DNA of 64,000 nt from Bispira polyomma (lineage: Eukaryota): the NCBI GenBank assembly GCA_965649765.1, contig OZ287748.1, positions 29,512,001-29,576,000 on the forward strand, read 5' to 3'. The notes below the pieces were generated by a model. The model was not told the origin of the DNA. It did not search any database and saw only the letters and a list, made by a program, of their open reading frames with translations. Of this stretch, positions 19,601 to 50,300 are shown one piece after another (within the stretch, counting starts at the first letter, position 1; the number at the start of each line of letters is the position of its first letter). A program made the translations under genes and the position numbers.

Positions 19601-20628
19601 AGTATCAAGTCATACAACGTCATACTGGTCGTCATCAGAAGGCAATGGTGTTTTCATGTCTTGTCCAAAAGGATGTTATTGCTAAATGACACTACTGTGG
19701 CATTATCAGAGGTTGAACCGGGACACTCTGGTCACCAGACAAATTCCCTAAACCACTAGGCTAGGACAGGCAACAGTTATCTGTTATTTTATGTATGACA
19801 TTTTTATTGGAGTTGTCAACACCCTCGCATCATCAAAACAAGATTTCAGGTGCAAAGTTTACACCATAGCGAAGTCATAAATAGGGGTATGGTGGGCAAG
19901 ACAAAATTAATTGTGGCATGTAATTTTGAACAGATGAGTCCAAATTTGACAGAAATAGTATGTGCTAGGGTTTACATCAACAAAAGATTTGGTCCATCAT
20001 TTGGGCGCTGCCACAGTAAAAGCATTAGGTTTTGATATTCCAAAAATATACAGTCTTCTTTTACCCTCCTAATAATATAAGTGATAGGGAGCCGAATAAG
20101 AAGGCTGTTGTTAGAATAATTGCCTTTTCATTGATGTCTTGTGTGGGCTTCGTGAGGAGTCTGTAACAGATAGCTCAGGATAATCATACAGCATATCATT
20201 GTGTTGTATTGTTGGCCTCCAATAATACATATTTAGAAAGAAAAATTACTTCTTTGACTTGAATTAAAAATTCTGTGAAACTTTTTTGACCGGAGGTGCG
20301 CCTTGTCCTTCTTGACTCGGCTCCCTCAGACAAGCACAGTAAGACATGGATTTGACTAAAAAACTTGTTTATTCCCCTATGAGATTCAAAGGCAACATGA
20401 AGTGACAATGGCCATTGTAACACCCCAGCAGCTGTAAGTTATAACACCAAACTCCTAACACGAAACATCTGCAGCATCACATGCAAACTGTAAACATGCA
20501 TCCACTGCATGCAAAACCCACTACAACGTCCTCACGTTCCAACAACAAACATCTCCAGTGGAAGTATTTGTCAAAAAACAATGACAAAAGTAAAAGACCG
20601 CCGTTTACTATGGAAGTATGTTGCTTTG
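16618..20628 (+). repeat. Local duplication, copy 1
   Basis: 16734-18575 matches 21574-23533, 20218-20628 matches 28746-29165, and 16618-16735 matches 21229-21346 in inverted orientation. Confidence 0.92.
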
Positions 20629-23600
20629 AACTATTACAAGCTGGTAAGTAAACCTGTTGTGCTCTATATTACATGGCTTTGGATATGAGCTGTCTTTTCT
20701 ATATATGGCTTATTTTAATTACCTCTTGTAGTTGGCTCAATGAAGCTTTTGTTTCAAATTCTGTCTTTCATTCTACCTATGATTAAGGTTTGGCCACCTA
20801 CCATCTATTTCAAAAAATTACATTGAAATAAAAAGCGTATAGAACTTTTGGTGGTGACATTTTACTATAAGTGAACAACATCACTTTAAATACTATGTAA
20901 ACAATATTGTTTATATGCAGCTTTCTGTTGGACAATTATGTAATATTTCTATCAGAATTATATTTTTCTGCTGGTAAAATGCATTACTGAAAGAACCAAA
21001 GATGTTAAATGATTTAGCCATAAATAATACAAAGATATGTAGTTCAACTGCTAACATTACTTTTAGTAAATATTTACTAGTATATTTACTAGTTTATTTA
21101 GTTATAAATATTACAAATTACTTTTATTTTTTTTTACTTCAAGTAAGCAACATTACTTTAAATACTATGTAAACAATAATGCTGATACAAAGCTTTATGT
21201 TGGACCTTTTTGTAATATTTCTATCAGAATTGGTTATTCTAAGATGGTTTTACATACCAAACAAATCCTGGGTAATGAGACTTATCTGACAGATACAAGC
21301 ATGTCTGGTTTTGTATAGATCTATATATCCTCCATATGTAAATAGTGATACAATAGTAAATATTTTACTAATAGTAACTTTAGAAATCAAACTAGTTTGG
21401 CAATTGTATATTAATTTGTAATATTTATTACTCAATAAACTAGTAAATTTACTAGTAAATATTTAACTACAAGTAACTTTGGCAGTTCAACTACATCTTT
21501 TTGAAGTATTTATAACTACATCATTTAACATCTTTGGTTCTTTCAGAAATGCATTTTACCAGAAGAAAAACATAATATATTTACATCTCTTATACAACAT
21601 AACCCATAGGCAAACCTGTGTGAAAGAAGTAGAAAAAACAAAGACCTATGATGCTTCAGGTATTGTCAATAAAGCTGTGTTAAAAATAGATCTGACACTT
21701 CCCGAGCTCAACTTACATGTATTTTGAAAACGGGTGCTAGAGCACATGTTTTCTGTCAAAATGTTCTTGTCCTTCAAGAACAATCAGTTTTTTTAGATAT
21801 TTAGATCATAAGGGTATACAAAGTGGCATTTAGCTGTAGTTGATTTGCAGGACAAACCGTCTATGAGAGACAGTAACATATTTGTATCCACTTTTCTTTA
21901 ACCGATTTATCTGATTCGTTCTAGTTAGTTAGGCTTTAATGTCACTTTCAGCACGCTTTGTGTCATATGATGACATACTAGGGGATATATTAGAACAGGG
22001 TAGGTGGTCAAGGTGTTTTACTCTGCAAACTAGCAGCAAGATTACTGCCAACTTTCTCATATACACCCCAGTGGGCTGTTTGCACCCTTGACTGCATAGG
22101 TTGGAGGTAGGTCTCACCACAGTAGCACTGAGGACCCAATTTATGAGATTAGAAAAACCCAACATATTAATGGATTTTTATGTCTTCCATTGACACTCAG
22201 TGTACAGATTCTTGTAAATGAGGACACAGTGTCAGGTCTTTATTAGGTTAGGAGTCCAAGAAACACAAAAAGTACTTTCGGTTAGCATTCATTTGAAAGA
22301 TTTTTATTTTGATAATTTTTTTTATAGAGAGATTAAATAAATTGCATCATTGTGTCAATCCAGGTGGAGCCTAAATGTTGTCCTAAGTTGACTTAATCTG
22401 ATTTACAACCACCATCCATCAAATACTGCTATTAACTAATTATATGTGTTGGAGTTTAATTATCATGACTAATTCCCAAATTTTATTTTCCCATTTTTCC
22501 TGCACTTTGAATTCTTACTATTTGCTTACTTGGACATGATCTTCATTTTGTGACATTCTTAAAAAAAATACAATACTTTTGTATTAATGACCTTATCAGT
22601 ACTTGTTTGACAATTTGTTTTTTCTGTTTTCTTTTCATACATCATAAAGAAATAAGGTAGAAGGTTACAAAGTACATTAAGCACATCTGTTTTACCAGTT
22701 AAAACAAAGACTATTTTGGTTTTAACAGCTTTTACCATTGTGAGGTTATTTGTGTGAATCAACAGTGCTGCTGATGAGGGATACTGTTTTATGTATTGTT
22801 TTGTTGTCTATGTATTCTAATATTCAATTAATACACAATATAATAATATCAGGTGTTAACTTCCAAAATAACTGATTAAAATCACTCCCCAAACAAATAC
22901 ATTTAAACATGTAAATACCTGCACAATCTTCTGTTATAATTAGAAAGGCAACCCTGGTTCTATTATGAAGCATTACATCTACAATTCAAATATAATGATA
23001 ACCAGGACACAAACGCATGTAGGGATGGTTATTGGACTATATCTGTTACAAGCCTATCATAGTTCCATTTCATGTTTATGCAAATTAGGATAACAAAAAA
23101 CTACTAGTTCTTCATTTTAAAAGGCGGGTTTTCAATATAAGTTGATAAAGCACATACTGCAATCTTGTTGAAGCATCTCATGAACAGTGCCCAGGAAGAA
23201 GATATGTTAAAGTAAAAATAGTTACAGTAAATATGCTGACACAACAAAACCTGATGTGTATCCCTCTTCCCCATGCTTAGTTTTGGTCCATACAATAAAG
23301 TTAATATATATATAAGGGTAAGTCAACTTGCCAAAATGAAAATGTTAAAAAGATATGTTCTCTGTCAATACTTCAGCTCTAATGTTTATTCTGAGATTAA
23401 CTGTTTGGTATTAGGTTAATTCACTTCATGTATTAAAAATATTTTTACTTTATGTATTGGATCTGACCTCAAACATATATTTTATACTATCTAAATTTCA
23501 TTTAGGTTAAGTAAATAGCTTAACTTATAACATTGGTAGGCAGCGCCCAGGTGCGGGCGATTTCAGTTCACAGGGTCCCAGTCTGAAAAAGCTAATTGAC

Positions 23601-23781: not shown

Positions 23782-24781
23782 ATGTTCACAATGCCAAGTA
23801 TTAAAGATTTTAGTTGTTTCAAGTGTGGTCGAAAACATGAAAGCCCAGTGGGTAGAAAATGTGCTTATTTTGTGGTGCTGAGGAATCCATGGCTGTTGCC
23901 GGCTCCAGTGATGCTTCTACCTCCTCTTCAGTTCAGGGCAATCCTATTTCTGGACAAATTCTGACACAATTGCAATCCATGGCTGAAATGATGGAGAGGA
24001 TGGACCAACGAGTACAGCTCACGGAGGCGGCGATAGCGGGAGACCTCACCAAAAATCAGTAGTAGCTCTCTTTCTGTCAATTCTATAGTCGAACCAAGTA
24101 TTAAAGGTACTTCCAGTAATAGTTTTATTCCTACTGTTGAATTTCTAAAGAAAAACTCGGCCATTCAGACACAAGTAGAATAGAGATTAGTTGAATTAAA
24201 AGCTTTAAACGAGAATCCGACCCAAGGTAAGCTTAAGCTTAAATCCCAACGAGAGGGGGGGGGGTACTGAAGTTATGGTTAAAAAATTAGTCGAATGGCC
24301 ACAAAATCATGTACTTTCTGGGAGTCTGAAACTTGTCCAAGTTATGACGACTTAACTCTTAATCAGTGGGTCTGTGGATTCACTAGAATAATTCAAGATG
24401 ATATTGGAATACATGGCTAATTTGATTGAATACTCCCAGGATTTTTCCTGGGAGTCAGCCAAAGTGTGTCATGCTGTCATTCTGTCCACGATGGAGGTGG
24501 ACAAGTTAAAGTGGACAGAGGTCGATAAGATAGATCGTCTAAGAAGGGCTCATGCCCAAAGGCATATTTCTAATAATACCAGCCAGGGAAACAGTAAAAC
24601 TGGTACTAAGACAACTGTCAGTGGTAAGCAAAATTCGGCAAACTGTAAATACTTCCAAGAAGGTACATGCAAGCACCAAAATAACTATAAAACTGGAAAT
24701 ACCTACTTCAAACATGTGTGTGAGGCGTGTGGAGGTAGCCACAAGAACTCGGCTTGCCATAAGAAGGGTTAAAAAAACTAA
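23782..24781 (+). pseudogene. gag-like ORF1 of element 1 (frameshifts and stops)
   Basis: N-terminal CxxC...H...C (CFKCGRKHESPVGRKC), a helical middle part, WPQNHV...DFSWESAK, and a C-terminal Cys/His finger CKYFQEGTC...HVCEACGGSH...C that matches the gag end of element 2. Confidence 0.75.
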
Positions 24782-24805
24782 AGGGCCACTGCAGCGATGC
24801 AGTGG
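24772..24805 (+). promoter_or_regulatory. Putative -1 ribosomal frameshift signal, element 1
   Basis: A_AAA_AAC in the gag frame, 7-nt spacer, CCACTGC-agcgat-GCAGTGG hairpin. The following ORF (24802) is in the -1 frame. Confidence 0.78.
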
Positions 24806-27254
24806 GCGAAAAAATTATAAAGCGAATTCTTAGACGCACTGTATATAGTAAAGATTTTCAATCATATCACTTGTTTGACAAGTCGGTGATTAAAAAGATG
24901 TGTACATATAATAGAGGTATAACAAGCCAGTGTAGTTACAGCGAAGTCGTGGTTAAACCGCGTAGTAGCAGTAAGTATATGAAAAGTAATGTATTACAAA
25001 GTGTACATAAAAATACCAGTACTAATCCTAACTTTGTAAAACAAAACTTGGGGTGCAAAGCTCTCCCAAGACATGTAAATAAAGCAACAATGGGGGCGAC
25101 CAGAGCTAGGCAAACACACAAGGTGAGAGTTAAAAAACCACAACCTATTGTCAAAACTCGGGTTCCTCTCTTTGTGAATAAAAGAGTGTAATTGATTTCA
25201 ACAAACAAAACAATCAGTGGCAGGCTGACACGGCTAATAGATTTAGTGTGCTTGGCCAGCTTGATACCTCCATTGTTGAGGGTGATAGGGACAACAATGA
25301 AAGTGAGTGTTTGCTGGTGCCTATTGTTACCAACACACTAGCCAGTGGGGGAAATGTTAGTACCAAGAATAGGTGCAGTATTTCTTGCAAGGGTAATTCC
25401 CCTACACAGGGCAGTATAATTGAACGAAAGGAAATGCATTCTATTAAAATAAGGTCTTCCTAGTGACAAGTATGCATTTGATTTAAAACAAAAGCAGAAC
25501 AAGCGCGAATTGTCAGAAAAGGCAAAATTAAATGAAACCCACATCAAATGGCGTGAACAAAACAAGGTCCACTATGGCTTTATCCCTTTGTCTACATTGG
25601 GTACAAAAATATGGGACAATAGTTCAGAAAATTTGGGTGTTGATATTCTAGAAATGCATAATTTGTTGCGACAAGATGGTAGACAAAATTTCAATTACCA
25701 GTAAATTCCCAGCTAAATCTTGATAGGTGGAAATAGTATTTGGGTGAATATTAGGATTGGCAGTTACCTCTGCCAATTAAATATGGCTTTCCTCTTGACG
25801 TGTATTAGCCAATCAGCGTGGCCCAATCACAAATCCGCTTTGGAATTCCCTGAACACGTCGATTTCTATTTGAAGGAAGAATGTGATTATGGTGCAATGC
25901 TCGGGCCATTTATGAACCCTCCAATCAAAAATCTGCATTTCTTACCAATGATGACACGCACAAAAACAACCTCGAGTAATAGGTGGGTCATCGTTGATCT
26001 GAACTGGCCGAAGGGCCAATCAGTTAACGCTGGTGCTTCACCCACCACATACTTGGGTACAGATTTTATATTATCTTATCATTCTATCGACAATCTAACA
26101 AATGAGGTACTAAAACTGGGGAGAGGTTGTAAAATATTCAAAATTGACGTTAGTGGGGCATTTAGACATGTGCCCATTGATCTTGGGGAGATTGATTTAT
26201 TAGGCCTGAAGTGGGGTTTTTATTTTATAGATAAGTCACTCCCATTCGGTTATCAGAATGGGCGTACTATCTGTCAGAGAATTTCAGATGCAGTTAGATA
26301 CATAATGTACTCCGAAGGTCATAATGTCCACAATTATTTGGATGATTTGTTATGCATCTCACTCCTGAGTAAAATCTACACAACTTACCAACGCTTGCAG
26401 GTACTGCTATCTGAATTAGGACTTACAGTCAGCAAGAAAAAATTAGTGCCTCCTAATACTGTGGTTATATGTCTGGGTATTAGTATCGATACTGTGAAAT
26501 TTACTACTTTATTCCTATTGAAAAATTGCAGGAAATTAAAAATATATGTGTCAGATGGAGAAGTAAAAAGTCTTGTACCAAGAAAGAACTTCAGTTTTTC
26601 CTAGGGTCTCTATTATATATGGCAAAATGTATTAGATATGCTAGAGTATATCTTAATTGAATGTTAGCCCTGTTGAGAGATAATCACAGCAACAATAGAT
26701 TTCCTTTTACTGAAGAATTTACCAGAGACCTTAGGTGGTTTATTACGTTTATAAATCAATTTAATGGAGATTCTTTCTTCAATCACAAACCTGTCAATGC
26801 AAAAATTGAGTTAGATGCCTGTTTGACAGGCATGGGGGGCATATACAAAAATCAAGTATACAAATTACCAGTCCCTACAAATATGTCTCATTATAATATT
26901 GCGGCACTGGAGATGCTAAATATATTGGTAGCCTTAAAATTGTGGGCTGAGGCCTGGCGTGGATTCCGAGTATTGTTCAAATGCGACAACCAAGCTGTGG
27001 TCAGTGTCCTGTAAACGGGGCGAACAAAAGATCCAATATTGGCTACTTATACTCGCAATATATACATGTGGGCCAGTCGTTTCGATATTGACATCAAAGT
27101 TGTACATATACTAGGCGTTGATAACAGTATAGCCGACTTATTGTCTAGGTGGCACAAAACCAAGAATAATGAAGAAATTTTAGCTACTTTGGCAGGTCCT
27201 ATAGTTTGGTTAGATACTGACCACACTTTATTGCAGGTGGATAATAATATATAG
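24778..27254 (+). pseudogene. pol (N-terminal extension, RT, RNase H) of element 1, disrupted
   Basis: RT motifs KIDVSGAFRHVP, LPFG, NYLDD, CLGI. RNase H motifs LDACLTGMGG, IAALEMLNI, CDNQAVV, NSIADLLSR. Split over several ORF-track fragments. Confidence 0.92.
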
Positions 27255-27284
27255 CATAAATACCTCCATTTTTATGTATTTCAG

Positions 27285-28300
27285 CAACAAATCCAATGGA
27301 TAGGATGCTCACAAAGATGGCTTGCCAGAGATTGCATTCAGCTTTCGCTGCTTCCACAGCTAAAGCCTATGAGAGCATGTACAGACTATTTCTGGCTTTT
27401 GGGGTATTCATGAAATGGACCTCCACCCAGGTGAACGTTTTCATCCTTCTTGCATATTTAGAATTCTTAAATTTTAATGCTGTATCACCCTCTCAGATTA
27501 CAAATCACTTGTCGACCATCAAAGCTAAATGCATCCTGTTCCATTTGAATGTTGATGTTTTTCTGATCCAAGAATTTCATATTTTACCAGAGCCTTGTTA
27601 GTAAATAGACCTTTGCAAGTGAAATTGAAATGTATTTTTGACATACCTCTGCTTAGTGTTGTAGTACAGAAGTGTGACTATATGTATATGGGTCATGTAT
27701 TCAAGGCTGTTTACCTTACCAGTTTCTTCAGTTTTTTGCGACTCTCAAATTTATCTCCTCATTCAGTAAAGGATTTTTCACCTCTCAAGCATCTCGCCAG
27801 CGGCGATATCATGTTCAAGCCTGGTTACGTAGTCCTACTGGTAAAATGGTCAAAAACAATGCAAACTAATGATGCTGTGCGACTTCTCACCTTACCAGCT
27901 TTGTCCAATTCTATTTTATATCCAGTCACAGCCTTGAAGAACTTGTTGGCCATTACTCCTGCTGGTTCAAATCTTCTTTTGTTTCAGTTTAAGCTTTCGG
28001 CTTCCTGGATCCCTCTTACTGACACCCTGGTCAGGCGCCATCTCAAAATTGTCTTACAGATGCTGGGCTTACAAAATTCAAACCTCACCTTCCATGCTTT
28101 TCGACGTTCAGGTGCCACCTTTGCTTTTAATAATAATGTCCGAATCAAAGATATTCAGAGGCATGGCACCTGGACGTCGGAGTGTGTGGAGATATGTTAC
28201 AGACTCAGCCAATGCTAGTTCTCAGGTAGCCGACGCTTTCTGTGCAGCCCTACGTACTGCTTCATGTTCTAGGTTTGGTGGTCTGCCATATCTTATGTGA
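27285..28300 (+). pseudogene. Tyrosine recombinase of element 1, frameshifted
   Basis: FFSFLRLSN (R), KWSKT (K), HAFRRSGAT (HxxR), HGTW and, after a frameshift, VWRY (catalytic Y). Confidence 0.92.
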
Positions 28301-29441
28301 CAGTACATGTTTATATTAATGTATTTAAATAGAAACTTACAGTAACCATATTACTGTACTGGGCATAAGGTCACCTTACATAACACAGTACATAATATAC
28401 TTTTTTATCTAAAATTTGATTCAATAATCTCAAATTTCACTTACATTTAAGTCTACCTTACTAGTTCACATGAGGTTGACTTACTGCAACCACAAACTCA
28501 ACATGTGTCTTTCTTGGCTTGACCTGACCTTAAATTTCAGTTAAGTCACTGGTAGACTTAACTTAAGCCTGACACAAAATTTCGGATCAAGCTATGCCTA
28601 ACTCAATTATCGATTTAAAAGTGTATTTCTGGTCGCCTTATTCTCAATTTAAGGCAACCTTAGTAATTTCAAAATCCTTGTAGTTAAGGTGACCTTATGC
28701 CCTAACTTTATAACTGTATATATACTAAGTAGTAGCCTAACACATTCCAATAATACATAATAAAAAAAAGTACTTCTTTGACTTGAATTAAAAAGTCTGT
28801 GAGACTTATGTGACTGGAGGTGTGCCTTGTCCTTGACTCGGCTCCCAGGAGAAACAGGGGAGAAAGACAAGCACAGTAAGACATGGATTTTACTAAAAAA
28901 ACTTGTTTATTCCCCTATGAGATTCACAGGCAACATAAAGTGACAATGGCCATTGTAACATACCAGCAGCTGTAAGTTATAACACCAAACTTCTAACAGG
29001 AACCATCTGCAGCATCACATGCAAACTGTAAACATGCATCCACTGTATGCAAAACCCACTACAACTTTCTCACATTCCAACAACAAACATCTCGAGTGGA
29101 AGTATGTGACCAAAACAATGACAAAAGTAAAGGGTTGCCGTTCACAATAGAAGTACGTTGCTTTGTGAAAAATCTCTTAATTTTGTATATGAACAATTCC
29201 AAAATTTTAAATAAAATATAAACAATGCATGGTCACACTTATAAAACGTAGTGAATTAGTGAATTCACAGTTGTACTCATAGTGTTGTTTTAAACTCAAT
29301 CTGAAGAGCAAATGCACTTTATTTTTTTTAATAGCACATCTAAAACTTAAACTAGCTGTGCACTCGGGTATATAGGATTTGGTGGTAATTTGGACTAGTT
29401 TCTTACAACATAGTGTAATTCTCTTTATTTTTATCACCTTA

Positions 29442-38435: not shown

Positions 38436-39326
38436 ACAAATTCAAAGTCCCTAGGGCTCTTTGTGTAATTTGGGGATAGAGGACCACATGTATTAGGCTG
38501 TTATTGCTAGGAACTTCAGACTGAAATCGAACCTATGTGCTCTGTGTGTATTACCAACTAGACCACGGCTTAAGAATATTATCCAACAATATACGGCCTA
38601 AACCACTGCCACTTACTCCAAAATCAGTTAAAGGCAAATACTATTTGCAAATGTTTAGATTTGAGCTCTTGTTGTACTCACTGCAGTAGAATATATCCTA
38701 CGGCGAGAAAAAGGGACTAAGTGTAATTGATAGGCTCCTCATTCCTATTCCATGCTTTGGCTTTTATGGTTTATCAATCTGTAATAGTGTAATAGTAGTA
38801 GCAGTAATAATGACTGGATGTAATCACAGACCAATTCCTTTGGGGCTGAGTGGTTTGTGACATGCAACTTTCTACAAAGGACACGGCCATTTTCTTGCCT
38901 CTTAAATCCAGTTAGGTCTCCTTCTCTTCTAATAAACAACCTACCCCTTTCAAAGAATGACTTATAGCTATAGCAAGACAGGAGTTTGCTATTACTAGCT
39001 TTTATTTTGAATGAATTTTACTACCGACTGTTTCAAACAACTCTTCCACCTGGGCATGGTGTAACTTTGTTGCTTTATTCCATTAATGTTACCTCTATAA
39101 CTAAACTAATCAACAAACCCAACACATATCTAAACTCAGGTGTACTTGAAATGAAACATTTCAGCAGTTGCACTGCTAGGAAAAGGAATAGCAAAATATG
39201 TAATTTATGCCAATAACATTATTATTATTATTGTCTCCCATGTCCTGGTGGATAGAGAGTTAGCCTGGTGATCTAAAGGTCCCTGATTTGACTCCCAGCA
39301 AAGTCATATACTGGATTACTGGGGAA

Positions 39327-40100
39327 AACATCTCTGGGCATGCATTGCCTACTAATAGGACCAATGCTATGTTATATAACATCTCTGGGCATGTGTTGCC
39401 TACTGGTGAGGACCAATGCTATGTTATGTAACATCTCTGGGCATGCATTGCCTACTAATGAGGACCAATGCTGTGTTGTATAACATCTCTGGGCATGCAT
39501 TGTCTACTGATGAGGACCAATGCTATGTTATATAACATCTCTGGGCATGCATTGCCTGCTAATAGGACCAATGGTATGTTATATAACATCTCTAGGCATG
39601 TGTTGCCTACTGGTGAGGACCAATGCTATGTTATGTAACATCTCTGGGCATGCATTGCCTACTAATGAGGACCAATGCTATGTTGTATAACATTTCTGGG
39701 CGTGCATTGCCTACTGATGAGGACCAATGCTATGTTATATAACATCTCTGGGCATGCATTGCCTACTAATGAGGACCAATGCCATGTTATATAACATCTC
39801 TGGGCATGCATTGCCTACTAATGAGGACCAATGCTATGTTGTATAACATCTCTGGGCATGCATTGCCTACTAATGAGGACCAATGCTATGTTATATAACA
39901 TCTCTGGGCATGCATTGCCTACTAATGAGGACCAATGCTATGTTGCATAACATCTCTGGGCATGCATTGTCTACTGATGAGGACCAATGCTATGTTATAT
40001 AACATCTCTGGGCTTGAATTGCCTATGATGAGGACCAATGCTATGTTATATAACATCTCTGTGCATGCATGCCTACTGATAAGAACTAATGCTATGTTGT
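39327..40100. repeat. Minisatellite, 51-52-bp unit, ~15 copies
   Basis: Unit aacatctctgggcatgcattgcctactaatgaggaccaatgctatgttatat. Confidence 0.97.
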
Positions 40101-40239
40101 AGGATTTGCAAGGTTATGTTATCGATTTATATCCCTTTACGGAAATAAAGCATCATAGGAGGACGCTTCAAATAATTTGTGTGGTGTGGAGATTTGCAAA
40201 GTTGAAGATGAAAAAGAATCTTGAATACATACTATTTAC

Positions 40240-40451
40240 AAGCTAAAAATAATCACAAAAATGGACATAGTAAAGGCATGCCCTGCAGATATTTTCAAAA
40301 GGGCACTTGCCCACAGAAAAACGACCACGAAACCAATGGCAAACTCTATACACATGTATGTGCAGCTTGCTCTGCGATAGGCAAAAATTTTCCCCACCCT
40401 GAAAAAGATTGTAGGAAAAGCAAGGCTAATGCAGTTCCAAAAAACGACTAG
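40240..40451 (+). pseudogene. 3' remnant of gag, element 2
   Basis: CRYFQKGTCPQKNDHETNGKLYTHVCAAC...HPEKDC aligns to CKYFQEGTCKHQNNYKTGNTYFKHVCEAC of element 1. Confidence 0.8.
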
Positions 40452-40472
40452 GGCACTGCAAAACAGCAGTGC
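40439..40472 (+). promoter_or_regulatory. Putative -1 ribosomal frameshift signal, element 2
   Basis: A_AAA_AAC in the gag frame, 7-nt spacer, GCACTGC-aaaaca-GCAGTGC hairpin. The pol ORF (40469) is in the -1 frame and open from the slip site. Confidence 0.8.
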
Positions 40473-42807
40473 AAGTAAAAAACTCGGCATTAACACCGGG
40501 TACAAATAGTCACCCATGTAGCAGAGCAGGCTTCAATTCGTCTAGAATCATTGTAAATTCTAAGGTTGCAAACGTGAGTAGTGACAACTGGAGATCTGAC
40601 TGGGCGAGATTCAGTAATAAAACATATGCACAGGTCGTGAAACAAAGGCTCTCAAGCCCTAAACAGGCTAGTAACAACTCAAAACACAGAGAAGTAGTTC
40701 AAAATGAAAAAAGGATCCCCAGTTGTCACACCAAAAATGTTGTAAATAAAAAATGTGTAAATACAAAAGTTCACCATGGTGTAACAAAGCAATGTACCCA
40801 ACTAAAAGACGTGAAAAAGGTGAGGATTTGTAGGTCACCTGGGCGTGAAAGCCCAATTAAGCCTAACAATAACATCATTGTGCAAAATCGTTTTGACCCA
40901 CTTCTCACACTTTGTCATACATCACCCGTTGTAGGTGGGAAAAGTGACACATTACTTGCTAACAAGGTCAGTGGACCACAAAAGGTAAACATAGATACTG
41001 TTACAGTACACAAAGACAAGTATAACTTGCAACTTCAAGTCAAAAACAAACATAAAGAGAAAGTAGCACAGGCTAAAAATAAGGATACATTCAAAAAGTG
41101 GATTAGCCAGACACGAGGTAAGTTGGGCTTTATTCCTCTAGGTCCTCTAAAAAATCCACCCGATGACAATCCAAGTGAAAATACTTTCTCTGAGCTTGAA
41201 CTGCATTCTAAGGTAAAAAGTAGCAAAAATTACAATTTCATTGGAGAGCAATTAGTAGTGCAGTCACAACTCAAACACGAGCGTTGGAAAGAACTACTAG
41301 TGGATTACTGGGATACCCAGCTTCCTCATCTTATTCGCTACGGGTTTCCCTTGGACTTTAATCGGCACTCAGAATTAAGTTATAAAGAAGAAAACCACCA
41401 TTCGGCGCGTGAGTACACCGATGACGTCATGGCCTATCTAGAAGAAGAAAAACAGCATGTGGCGATTCTGTGTCCGTTTCATAAGCCACCCATACAAGGC
41501 ATGCATATTTCCCCATTCATGACAAGAGAAAAACCAGGTGCACCCCATAGAAGGGTCATCATAGACTTAAGTTTCCCGCCGGGGCAATCAGTTAATTCTG
41601 CAATACGTCAAAATTGATACTTAGGTACAAACTTTCTTCTGACACTGCCCACCATTGATGAAGTAACAAACAAAATTGTAAAATTAGGCAAAAATTCACT
41701 CATTTATAAACTGGACATAAGTCGCGCCTTCAGGCGCGTAAAACTTGATCCAGCCGATTACGACTTGCTAGGCCTAAAACTAGAAAACTATTACGTTGAT
41801 ATGTGCCTGCCATTCGGCTATAGGCACAGAAGCGCCATATTTCAGCGCCTAAGTGACGCCATGCGTTACGTCATGCGCGGTAGAGGCTATGACGTCATCA
41901 ATTATATAGATGACGTCATAGGATTTGGAAACGGCCTGTACGTCCATGACGCTTACGACGCCCTCTATAGGCTAGTGCAAGAATTAGGTTTCGCTATTAG
42001 CAGTAAGAAATTAGTACCTCCAAGTACTAGGGTAACGTGTCTAGGCGTCTTGATTGACACAACTATGTTTACAGTAGAGGTGCCACCGGAAAAACTTGCG
42101 CAAACAATTCAACTCTGTAACAGCTGGGTAGGTAAAAAAGAATGCTCGAAACGAGAACTCCAATCACTGCTGGGCTCATTGCTTTATATTTCAAAATGTG
42201 TTCATATTGCCAGAATTTTCTTAAATAGGATGCTAGACAAACTGCGCAATGCTCCAGATGCAAAACGCATAGGCCTGGAGCTTCCATTCTTCCAGGATCT
42301 TAATTGGTTCACTAAATTTACACAAAAATTTAATGGCAAAGCCTTCTTTGACCACAGCCCTGTCACAGATGAAATTGAGCTTGATGCCTGTCTAACAGGC
42401 TTAGGAGGTAGATGTAATAATATAGTTTATACAAAAATCCTCCCCCTTAATTATCTGAGAATGAACATTGCACATTTGGAAATGCTTAATATTTTAGGAA
42501 AAACACTTGGAAAGGTAAGAAACTGGTAGTCCACTGTGACAACCAGGCAGTGGTCACCATCTTGAACTCTGGCAAAACCAAGGACTTAACTCTTGCAGCC
42601 ATTGCAAGGAACATTTTTATGGAAATTGCTGAGTCAGATATAAATTTAAGGCCAGTACACATTTTAGGTAAACTGAATGTCGCAGCCGACCTCCTATCTA
42701 GATGGCACAAAACTCAAGAACCAGACATTAAACTACAACAAATAATACCTGAACCACACTGGGTAAAGGTTCAGGATGAATTACTAACTATTGACAGGGG
42801 TATATAA
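40445..42807 (+). pseudogene. pol (RT and RNase H) of element 2
   Basis: HISPFMTREK...RVIIDLS, LPFG, NYIDD, LDACLTGLGG, HCDNQAVV, NVAADLLSR. There is an in-frame stop at 41615-41617 and a deletion/frameshift near 42495. Confidence 0.93.
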
Positions 42808-42817
42808 TTTATTTCAG

Positions 42818-43789
42818 ATCTCTCTCCGCTGGTGTTGCAGCTAGCTGGTCAGGCTGCCCATACAGCTAGGCAGGCCCTTAGGCCTGTCACTCAGTAAGCC
42901 TATCAAACCATGTTCAAGGTTTTCATAGTTTATACTATATTTGTAAGTGCCTATATTACACACATTTCCCCCATTTTACTACTTTCGTTTCTACAGGTAC
43001 TGGTAGCCAGTAAAGTGTCCCAGCCCTCTATTGCCAACTATCTGGCAGCAATAAAAGCTAAACTCAGCCTATATGGTATAACTGTGGCTGCATTTGCAGA
43101 CCCTCGTATCAAGTATTTTCAGAAGGCACTTATCTTACAAAAACCTTTTAGGGCCAGAATTAATAAGGCTTACAGAAGTGGTAAAAATCTGTGATACAAT
43201 GTTCATGGGGCAAATCTTCAAGGCTGCTTACTTATTAGCCTTCTTCTCCTTTTTAAGAATTTCGAACTTAGTTCCCCACACACTCAGTACGTTTAATCCA
43301 TTAGAACAGCTTGCTAGGGCGGATGTGCTTTTTGCTCCCCCTGGACTCCAAGTAATAATAAAATGGTCCAAAACCCTTCAGGATAGAAATTCAATAAAAA
43401 TCATCAAGGTTCCAAGTATCAGGAACTCTGTACTCTGCCCTGTGGCAGCAATTAGAAACATTCTAGCTCTTTCACCAGCTAATAAAAACTCACCTCTATT
43501 CCAGTTCAAGACAGCTTCAGGCTGGGTTCCTCTCACAGATTCAAAAATAAGACATAACTTGAAGCAAATTCTAGTGAGATTGAATTTGACAGACTCTCCC
43601 ATAACATTTCACGATTTCAGACGTTCAGGGGCCACACTGGCCTTTAATAACCATGTTCCTTTACAAGAAATTCAAAGCCATGGCACATGGACTTCAGAAT
43701 GCGTTTGGAAATATATTACGAAGGATCATGAAGCTTCAGACCAAGTGGCCATAGCCTTTCAAATCCTACTTTCCAACCCTACTCACTAA
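42818..43789 (+). pseudogene. Tyrosine recombinase of element 2
   Basis: FFSFLRISN, KWSKT, HDFRRSGAT, HGTWTSECVWKY. There is a nonsense codon near 42895 and a frameshift near 43165. Confidence 0.93.
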
Positions 43790-43800
43790 CTTGGGTTTGG

Positions 43801-44204
43801 GTGCTTTTCTTAATCCATTTTATACTTTAAACTTGTTACTTATGTATCTCAGACTAAGGTCACCTACATCTTCAAACTTACACTTAAGTTAAAACTTAAA
43901 CCCATTAAGGTTACCCTAATTTAAACAACCATCTTAAGCTAAGATGGCCTCAAACTAAGCCAATCCGGCATCTTAAGGTAAGATGACCTTAATTTCAAAC
44001 TGTAAACTCAATTTGGGGTAACCTTAGTATCTTAACTTAAACTCAGTTTAAGGGTACACTTTCTGATCTCCTTAAACCCCTGGTGACCTTAGTCTTTCAG
44101 TATGTATATAGTGTAGTGTAACCAACTTAGAATAAAACTAATATTCCCAACGGCTATAGTTCTTACTGTGTTATCTCCAACGGTAAGGCCACAATAGGGC
44201 ACTG
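43801..44204 (+). repeat. Split direct repeat B1 of element 2
   Basis: Nearly identical to 45205-45607; fewer than 10 differences seen in ~400 bp. Confidence 0.93.
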
Positions 44205-45204
44205 TGCAAGGTAGCCCGAAGGGGCTAGTAGGGTCAGTGCTAGAAAGGATCTTTTTAAAAACTATTCTGGTCTGCATGACCTCAATGCCCATTGGCTCTC
44301 ATTAACCCAATTACACAGCTAATTCCCGCCAAATAGCCTAAGGGGTTCACTTTTACAATTGAAGTCAACAAGGCAACACGCCATTTTAAGATATCTTAAT
44401 TTTGTTTCCCACCCTCATCCCCTACTCACTCCTTTCAGTTGGCTATAGCGTCGTCTGGGAGCAAATTGCAGAAGGTGGGGTCCCTGTTCTCTCCCTTTAT
44501 GCCCTTAGGCGCAGAGGGGGGCAAAGGGGGTGCCGGGGTGAGGCTTCGACCTGTCAGCAACATGGCTCGACTGCAGTCTTGCACTCTGGTGCTTCCTTGG
44601 GGGCCCTCAGGGCTCCCACCTTCTTGTCTCCAATAATTTACTGGGAAACCAGTCCCCTAATCAGGGTCTCTTTTTATTATAGCCTGCTGGCCGGAGGAGA
44701 TACAACCTTATCACAAATTGTGTATCAAATAACATGTCTTTATTAATGTGTATCAAACTTTAACTTAATGTGTCAACTAATGTATATTAGAGGGAGTGAT
44801 AATATTGTCAATATGTACACAATATAAAACAAAACTTGTCAGTAATGTGTAACGATGGAATGTGTCAAGACATATTCAAGTGTAATTAAAATGTCAATGT
44901 CATAAATATAAATATGCATGTATTAACCACGAGTGTGTTAGTTTCAGATCACATGGAGCAAGTGATCAACATCCATGGCGTGCCGCGGCCAGCAATCAAA
45001 AAGCCTCTGGTCGGGCTGTGTCCAAGTCAAGCTCCAAGATATACTTAATGTATTATTGTACCTCGATTTCATTCGATTTGCAACATCGTGGTACATCTCT
45101 GTAGGTTTGACGGGACATTAATTTTAGATGTGCTGTTCTTTTAGTTTTTAGCTAGAACAGGATTGCTTGTTACTGCTTTTACAAATTTTTTTTACTCTTG
45201 TTAT

Positions 45205-45607
45205 GTGCTTTCGTAATCCATTTTATACTTTAAACTTGTTACTTATGTATCTCAGACTAAGGTCACCTACATCTTCAAACTTACACTTAAGTTAAAACTT
45301 AAACCCATTAAGGTTACCCTAACTTAAACAACCATCTTAAGCTAAGATGGCCTCAAACTAAGCCAACCCGGCATCTTAAGGTAAGATGACCTTAATTTCA
45401 AACTGTAAACTCAATTTAGGCTAACCTTAGTATCTTAACTTAAACTCAGTTTAAGGGTTCACTTTCTGATCTCCTTAAACCCCTGGTGACCTTAGTCTTT
45501 CAGTATGTATATAGTGTAGTGTAACCAACTTAGAATAAAACTAATATTCCCAACGGCTATAGTTCTTACTGTGTTATCTCCAACTGTAAGGCCACAATAG
45601 GGTACTG
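45205..45607 (+). repeat. Split direct repeat B2 (element 2 terminus)
   Basis: Copy of 43801-44204, running from taatccattttatac to ccacaataggg. Confidence 0.93.
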
Positions 45608-49052: not shown

Positions 49053-49626
49053 AGATTTTACCAGTTTGTGTCCACGTATATTACAAATTGTTAAAGTACT
49101 GATAAATTACCTGTTGTCTCATAAACTGTAACTAAATCATGAGAAAGCCATTTATAGTTTCAGTGCATTGTAAATATATCGAGTTATTAATTTATGGATG
49201 TCACATCGACATTTAGCTTTTTAGATTCGCAGTATTTCATATCTAAATATAGGTATTTAGCTCAAGCATTCATTGTATCCCTAAAGACACACTTACATAT
49301 ACTGGTTACTATATATATATTGGAACTATATTAGAAAGAGTTTAGAATGGACCTAAAATGGATAACCACATCTAAGTGGTAATTGGTAGTTTTATTTTGA
49401 TGCAATATTGATTGCAAAGCAATGGGATTTGTTTGCTTTGTGTGATGAAAGAAACATATTTTCACCTCCTCAATGAAGGTTATGGTTTCACTTGTGTCAT
49501 TTTGTTTGTCACCGGCATCACACAAAAGGAACTGAACTGACCTGCATGAAATTTGACGAAATGATAAAATATGGGCTTAGAACAAACTGTGTTTATTTTT
49601 AAGTGAATCCGGGTAGATGGGCAGAT

Positions 49627-50300
49627 TCTGACTGCAGAGTGACTACAGAGTGGCCCTATCTGACTACAGAGTGGCCCTATCTGACTACAGAGTGGCTCTA
49701 TCTGAATAGAGAGTGGCCCTATCTGAATAGAGAGTGGCTCTAACTGATTACAGAGTGCCCCTAACTGACTAAGGAGTGGCTCTATCTGAATAGAGAGTGG
49801 CCCTATCTGAATAGAGAGTTGCTCTAACTGACTACAGAGTGCCCCTAACTGACTAAGGAGTTGCCCTATCTGAATAGAGAGTGGCCCTATCTGAATAGAG
49901 AGTGGCTCTAACTGATTACAGAGTGGCCCTAACTGACTACATAGTGGCCCTATCTGACTACAGAGTGGCCCTAACTGACTACAGAGTGGCCCTATCTGAC
50001 TACAGAGTGCCCCTAACTGACTACAGAGTGGCTCTATCTGAATAGAGAGTGGCCCTATCTAAATAGAGAGTGGCTCTAACTGACTACAGAGTGCCCCTAA
50101 CTGACTAAGGAGTTGCCCTATATTAATAGAGAGTGGCTCTAACTGACTGCAGAGTGGCTCTAACTGACTACAGAGTGGCTCTATCTGACTACAGAGTGCC
50201 CCTAACTGACTAACGAGTCCCCCAAGTGACTACAGTGTGCTCCTAAGTGACTACTGACTCCCACAAGTGACTACATAGTTCCCTAAGTGACTACTATGTG
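49627..50300. repeat. Minisatellite, 21-bp unit, ~30 copies
   Basis: Unit gactacagagtggccctatct and variants, decaying at the 3' end. Confidence 0.96.

Follow-up and report, generated by a model that had tools for sequence, protein, structure and literature searches.

A heptamer and hairpin at the gag end of two elements

Two broken retroelements lie in the window, that is, the whole stretch of 64,000 nucleotides of Bispira polyomma DNA analysed here, and in each of them a frame coding for zinc fingers ends at an A-rich heptamer followed by a short inverted repeat. This raises the question of how the reverse transcriptase (RT) frame on the far side comes to be translated, and whether the 34-nt cassette at the junction directs ribosomes into it.

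40439-40445, + strand: slippery heptamer A_AAA_AAC of element 2, in gag phase (sequence, ORF frames)
40446-40452, + strand: 7-nt spacer of element 2, with the gag stop TAG (40449-40451) inside (sequence)
40453-40472, + strand: predicted stimulator hairpin of element 2, 7 bp with a 6-nt loop, G-C basal pair class, arms GCACTGC (40453-40459) and GCAGTGC (40466-40472) (folding)
24772-24805, + strand: cassette of element 1, with heptamer (24772-24778), gag stop TAA (24779-24781) and hairpin (24786-24805) of the C-G basal pair class, arms CCACTGC (24786-24792) and GCAGTGG (24799-24805) (sequence, folding)

The original prediction had described both sites as A_AAA_AAC, 7 nt and a 7-bp stem with a 6-nt loop, and the letters at 40439-40472 and 24772-24805 agree with it. 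Its further points hold for both elements as well: the heptamer stands in X_XXY_YYZ phase with the zinc-finger ORF, the gag stop falls within the spacer, and the RT ORF occupies the -1 frame. The two hairpins are predicted at -11.4 and -12.9 kcal/mol, and the 60 nt after the heptamer have folding z values of -5.2 and -3.3 at the two sites. By chance, a 7-bp stem that contains four or more G/C should start 5-9 nt downstream at a rate of 0.00135 per heptamer; for the 40 heptamers on both strands of the window, about 0.05 stem cases are thus expected and two are seen, both at gag ends.

The host elements are DIRS-order retrotransposons

The genome comprises 1.04 Gb and is AT-rich. Both window elements code for RT (PF00078) and a tyrosine recombinase (YR, PF00589), and both are broken; in the domain search, the PF00589 match is above cut-off in element 2 and below it in element 1. 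Beyond the cassettes, their features are as follows.

40212-40451, + strand: element 2, 3' remnant of gag with C-terminal Cys/His fingers, given as stop-to-stop frame (weak zf-CCCH, below cut-off); DNA homology begins near 40270
40439-42807, + strand: element 2, pol (linker, RT, RNase H, without methyltransferase) in the -1 frame, in which PF00078 exceeds its cut-off and PF13456 does not; two disruptions, an in-frame stop (41615-41617) and, near 42490-42529, a frame break
42808-42817, + strand: element 2, predicted splice acceptor immediately behind the pol stop, entering the YR frame in phase 1
42818-43789, + strand: element 2, tyrosine recombinase with a frame break near 43082-43194 (PF00589 above cut-off)
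43801-45607, + strand: element 2, split direct repeats B1 (43801-44204), A2 (about 44205-44407), spacer, B2 (45205-45607); B1 and B2 are 98% alike
23782-24781, + strand: element 1, gag with an N-terminal Cys/His finger and C-terminal fingers, with frame breaks and stops
24224-24232, + strand: element 1, predicted phase-1 splice donor within gag, AAG/GTAAGC, intron start 24227
24772-27254, + strand: element 1, pol (RT, RNase H), broken (ORFs, domain search)
27263-28270, + strand: element 1, broken tyrosine recombinase (PF00589 below cut-off) preceded by a predicted acceptor whose AG ends at 27284; the right end, 28270, is approximate

In the window elements and their relatives alike, gag, RT/RNase H and YR follow one another in this order on one strand. 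Full-length relatives measure 7.0-7.2 kb and are laid out as A1-gag-RT/RNase H-YR-B1-A2-X-B2, with a spacer X of 0.6-0.9 kb; for element 2, no A1 repeat was found, its 5' part being lost. Pol ends about 30-35 aa past the RNase H motif, and this distance, which has a median of 34 aa in 114 database relatives and exceeds 100 aa in two of them, leaves no methyltransferase. Absence of a methyltransferase and split direct repeats are structural marks of Ngaro elements (PMC4157794, PMC9210276; papers given by PMC number are cited from excerpts throughout). Elements 1 and 2 are thus DIRS-order YR retrotransposons with Ngaro structural marks, an assignment made by structure, which alone can mislead in classifying such elements (PMC4157794). 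They differ from Ngaro as described in PMC4157794, PMC9210276, PMC8547959 and PMC3783388 by the 0.6-0.9 kb between A2 and B2, that is, spacer X departs from the B1A2B2 layout given in PMC8547959; the two X spacers that were translated contained no hydrolase ORF. In place of the LTRs and DDE integrase that mark an LTR retrotransposon or retrovirus, they have YR (PF00589) and split repeats. The gag-pol junction of the original prediction is therefore a gag/RT junction as stated, but not that of an LTR-type element.

Several other repeats were seen in passing. A 52-bp tandem array of about 15 copies (39305-40119) occupies the expected place of the 5' part of gag in element 2, and the window also holds a 21-bp tandem array (49577-50294), a MITE-like inverted-repeat element (20957-21576) and a dispersed 420-bp repeat (20218-20628 and 28746-29165), the second copy of which follows element 1. 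Elsewhere in the genome, loci L053 and L088 are tandem arrays of a B-A-X repeat unit of about 1.05 and 1.66 kb.

Heptamer and stem are conserved throughout the genome

Conservation in other copies, on which the original prediction had staked itself, was found: the full cassette pattern has 1,098 exact matches in the genome, and the reversed-pattern control has none. The stem pattern alone occurs at 1,308 sites (control 45), 84% of which, the same 1,098, carry the heptamer exactly 7 nt upstream. When the spacer was allowed to vary from 4 to 10 nt and the loop from 4 to 9 nt, 1,098 of 1,118 matches (98%) had a spacer of 7 and a loop of 6. These counts comprise related copies and are not independent events. 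Synonymous variants are rare, since freeing the synonymous positions of the heptamer raised the number of matches only to 1,183, and freeing those of the stem together with the basal pair only to 1,283; among 100 listed sites of the freed-stem search, the wobble base was fixed in 100 (Ala), 97 (His) and 98 (Cys).

For the 25 loci most similar to element 2 over 500 nt of DNA, picked without use of the motif, conservation amounts to 0.99 in the heptamer, 0.98 and 0.99 in the arms, 0.87 in the spacer and 0.95 in the loop, compared with 0.72 for third codon positions in gag and 0.69 for those in pol; within the arms, the five wobble sites reach 0.96-1.0. The 25 closest matches of element 1 gave 0.98 for the heptamer, 0.99 and 0.96 for the arms and 0.88 for the loop. 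Here, third positions stand at 0.80 in gag and at 0.90 in early pol, so this set discriminates less. Heptamer and stem are thus strongly conserved beyond what the proteins need.

A sample picked through the recombinase was also screened. Of 70 YR matches 60 were taken, and 32 loci that fell in the two clades, near them or remained unplaced were inspected. Fifteen had the exact cassette (12 from one young family) and four were within two changes of it, one by a deletion; the other 13, without the cassette, were truncated, rearranged or members of other clades. Viral contigs yielded no exact match, and RT alignment found no relative there either. Metagenomes contributed two related loci, L111, where an in-frame stop takes the place of the cassette, and L112, which lacks the junction; the exact cassette has therefore not been seen outside this genome.

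The frames behave consistently around the cassette. In the first 30 loci, the gag stop follows directly after the heptamer in 17 of 17 copies of the C-G class and one codon later in 13 of 13 of the G-C class; the first A of the heptamer closes seven different gag codons, and TAA, TAG and TGA are all used as stop. Upstream, a stop closes the -1 frame within 14 codons in 26 of these 30 loci. As a separate observation, L063 has lost 11 nt within the cassette, and its gag and pol are fused in one frame of 1,221 codons.

One compensatory swap at the base of the stem

Of the 1,098 cassettes, 670 have a C-G basal pair, 428 have G-C and none has a mismatch there; among 50 listed stem sites, the single mismatched stem lacks the heptamer. 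In a quickly built tree of RT-RNase H, which covers 69 of 82 rows and carries a long-branch warning, the two classes, which are deeply diverged in RT, form separate clades with elements 1 and 2 (support 99 and 100). Since the swap divides two clades, it represents one, ancient, event. The compensatory base change proposed at the outset is therefore absolute in its pairing, but it counts once and the other six stem pairs do not covary. Likewise, the suggested check for covariation across homologues, when run, succeeded at the basal pair only: the loop-closing position pairs in 16 of 27 distinct loops against a shuffle mean of 14.2 (P 0.21), which is not significant. That six pairs stay frozen over so deep a divergence of RT suggests a further constraint, on the protein or specific to the sequence; a joint demand of protein and pairing, or a second, sequence-specific role, may hold them fixed.

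Sister clades carry other candidate recoding signals at the same junction

Sister clades were found via YR, without use of the cassette motif. One of them (L064-L066, L075, L078, L080-L083, L086, L095, L100, L107 and L108) has G_GAA_AAC at the same junction, followed after 7 nt by a long stem, with z values of -4.5, -3.8, -3.6, -1.9 and -1.1 in five copies; the stem is interrupted and spans about 70 nt. A partial pattern for this clade matched 87 genome sites (control 4), some of them probably unrelated. In L062 and L099, a possible H-type pseudoknot with a bulged stem 1 and an 8-bp stem 2 starts 8 nt past A_AAA_AAC; it is predicted from these two copies only. L084 combines A_AAA_AAC with another 7-bp stem (z -1.6), and in the clade of L051 and L053 the heptamer is A_AAA_AAT, after which no stable structure is predicted (z +1.9 and +2.2).

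Other elements keep both genes in one frame. In L054, L057, L060 and L076, gag and pol are split by a single in-frame TAG, and in the metagenome locus L111, whose RT identity is 42%, by a single in-frame TGA (1122-1124). These five are candidates for a clade using stop-codon readthrough; no significant structure was found after the in-frame stops (z -0.65 to +0.12). In L068 and L104, two copies only, the frame that continues past the gag stop (GTT TAA) is apparently +1, and +1 or -2 recoding is possible there. We consider different sequences of the same geometry in separate clades better evidence than the single covarying pair.

The cassette as a probable -1 frameshift signal

Very probably, the cassette is a programmed -1 ribosomal frameshift signal leading from Gag to RT, a reading of the sequence that draws on conservation beyond protein need throughout the genome and on the different signals at sister-clade junctions, and that bears out the original prediction. 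Most ribosomes would terminate at the gag stop and release Gag, and a minority would pause at the hairpin, where the Lys and Asn tRNAs would re-pair in tandem one base back, yielding a Gag-RT-RNase H fusion at a fixed low ratio. In the broken window copies, the signal would be a relic of selection on active ancestors, and the recombinase would be made apart, from a spliced RNA joining the first half of gag to YR. Points against frameshifting are that the hairpin, with 7 bp and about -12 kcal/mol, counts as a modest stimulator, that a single pair of the stem covaries, that an in-frame stop stands ahead of the heptamer in many relatives of element 1 (see the last section), and that the A_AAA_AAT clade is without a stable fold. 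A_AAA_AAC is exactly the heptamer used at the MMTV gag-pro junction, an example already named in the original prediction, which we give as general background. That the site is an established slippery sequence stands on the literature, in which A_AAA_AAC counts as one of the most shifty heptamers, G_GA is described as a variant of XXX, the usual spacer between slippery site and structure is 5-9 nt, and pol lies at -1 in 28 of 51 animal LTR retroelements (PMC5009743). The likeness to retroviral and animal LTR frameshifting as described there extends to the X_XXY_YYZ heptamer, the 7-nt spacer, the 3' structure and the Gag/Gag-Pol output. Differences are that the host here is a DIRS-order YR element in which protease and DDE integrase domains were not found, and that the predicted stimulator is a short hairpin rather than an MMTV-type pseudoknot.

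It is unlikely that RT is instead made from its own start codon, by re-initiation or internal initiation, or from a spliced RNA, with the hairpin serving another role such as packaging. A Met near codon 33-45 does recur in six of 19 long -1 frames (one more lies at 69), and in the young family Met144 precedes the conserved part of the frame. However, the position of the first Met, 33-330 codons into the 19 frames, is not conserved between classes. As to splicing, an acceptor-like site recurs 107-131 nt upstream, but a stop immediately ahead of the heptamer separates it from pol; downstream acceptor-like sites differ in place and phase, and the conserved DKY motif is without a consistent acceptor; splice entry into pol was thus unsupported, there being no common place or phase. 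Neither version explains the phased heptamer and the fixed 7-nt spacing. Very unlikely is slippage of RNA polymerase, or of the element's own RT, adding an A in the A6 run and thereby creating a Gag-Pol fusion. A Drosophila retrotransposon cassette that slips in vitro is a candidate for this process (PMC5737552), and the A run is unstable in the subfamily of element 1, which shows one-base losses, a one-base gain and a recurrent stop. Yet the structure in PMC5737552 is located 5' of the motif on the template and here 3', at ribosome spacing; moreover, the terminal C and the codon phase are conserved, and the G_GAA_AAC clade has only four A's.

Highly improbable as a sole account is a DNA-level or replication signal, that is, a 7-6-7 palindrome acting, for example, as recombinase site or as pairing partner of the 3' end. 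Its geometry does resemble that of YR sites, and the stem is frozen in sequence. Across clades, most element copies have a 3' end of ...ACTG (L039-L101; window 44195-44204 and 45598-45607), several ends of the G-C class read GGCACTG and so equal the 5' arm of the hairpin, and the L063 loop is the reverse complement of that of its sister L039. Against this, ends of the C-G class (GGAACTG) do not track their arm, clades with unrelated junction structures retain the ACTG end, and the phased heptamer is left unexplained; such a role would also be compatible with frameshifting. Slightest of all is the prospect that the motif is kept merely for the encoded peptides (K-N-stop in gag, H-C-x-x-A-V in pol) or by descent among young copies. 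The wobble bases of either arm all pair with first codon positions in the opposite arm, and constraint on the protein may therefore add to the freezing. But synonymous variants are rare, as noted above, DNA similarity between lineages often stops at the 3' end of the hairpin, past the gag stop (at 24805-24809 in three of four compared loci), and between the two classes RT has diverged deeply. Given the rarity of synonymous variants and the column conservation around element 2, peptides or descent alone are largely refuted as the explanation.

The recombinase is probably expressed by splicing

In 26 hand-picked lineage representatives, the offset from RT to YR is -1 in 12, 0 in 10 and +1 in four. 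Among acceptors up to 60 nt from the pol stop, the best one enters YR in phase 1 in 22 of the 26, compared with 33 of 156 and 28 of 73 in controls (binomial P ~1e-7, with relatedness ignored and a scoring rule fixed after the sequences had been viewed); a simpler rule, taking the first YAG after the pol stop, gave 46 of 62. L111 was excluded from the 26 because its YR begins about 300 nt after the pol stop; a phase-1 acceptor is also present there. On the donor side, a phase-1 GGT Gly codon is found in gag in 56 of 60 mapped loci (of 82), as against 255 of 796 nearby Gly codons, where A precedes GGT in 52 and position +3 is A in 55 of the 56. Of the metagenome loci, L111 and L112 have the matching acceptor and L111 the donor.

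These sites make a spliced Gag(N)-YR protein a probable product. Since the RT-to-YR offset varies and the phase-1 acceptor is constant, splicing is favoured over a frameshift between RT and YR, by which, according to Poulter and Butler 2015 as quoted in PMC13003380, the YR of Ngaro is reached from RT/RH. Their proposal likewise invokes frameshifting in Ngaro, but at the RT-to-YR junction; here it concerns gag to RT. Three contig sets of unrecorded kind with flat cover had the donor-acceptor joint in none of the 15 joints listed out of 26, which is no evidence either way, and a search for longer YR proteins gave two RT-YR gene models and no Gag-YR model, which is weak evidence.

Three products from one start?

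Combining these findings, we regard it as an even call whether elements of this kind make three products from one gag start, namely Gag by termination, Gag-RT-RNase H by recoding and Gag(N)-recombinase by splicing, the recoding module being swapped between clades and the splice kept. The modules would comprise -1 frameshifting with a short hairpin, a long stem or a pseudoknot, stop readthrough and perhaps +1 recoding. If true, such a programme would take the place of the RT-to-YR frameshift suggested in print, and it could account for the way in which ORF1 apparently sets the target choice of Ngaro (PMC8547959). In annotations, ORF2 and ORF3 of such elements have probably been given false starts at internal ATGs.

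The mechanism itself is textbook-standard, and what is likely new is the element class, the DIRS order. For DIRS-order elements, no slippery site or stimulator between gag and RT was found in the literature searched, that is, in excerpts of PMC3783388, PMC3266345, PMC8547959, PMC7192593, PMC9210276, PMC13003380, PMC4157794, PMC13465315, PMC5009743 and PMC6681497, the excerpt of PMC5009743 making no mention of DIRS; earlier reviews or Repbase may have one. Nor did this literature contain a demonstration of how YR retrotransposons express RT and recombinase, other than the quoted RT-to-YR guess. The cassette would extend -1 frameshifting to the DIRS order, offer a minimal natural stimulator and indicate that recoding signals turn over inside one superfamily. 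As the signal is 34 nt long and comes in about 1,100 copies with natural variants, the question reduces to a one-plasmid reporter experiment.

A recurrent early stop in element 1

In element 1, an additional stop precedes the cassette.

24770-24772, + strand: early in-frame gag stop TAA overlapping the heptamer

This TAA had been put down as probably a decay mutation, an account that does not suffice. It is shared by 14 of the 25 closest matches of element 1 (itself included), 13 of them clean and one with an extra A, the others having a sense codon (8 of 25) or being one base short (3 of 25). Neutral decay at a terminal branch length of about 3% predicts less than one such case, and early-stop and sense-codon copies are interleaved on the DNA tree; a lone decay mutation is therefore insufficient. 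Genome-wide, 8 of 100 listed cassette sites, counted by eye, have the early stop. Its source may be a hot spot for the polymerase within the A run, or else Gag-only copies that were inherited and moved in trans. In L125-L149, the early stop resembles a 5' extension of the A run.
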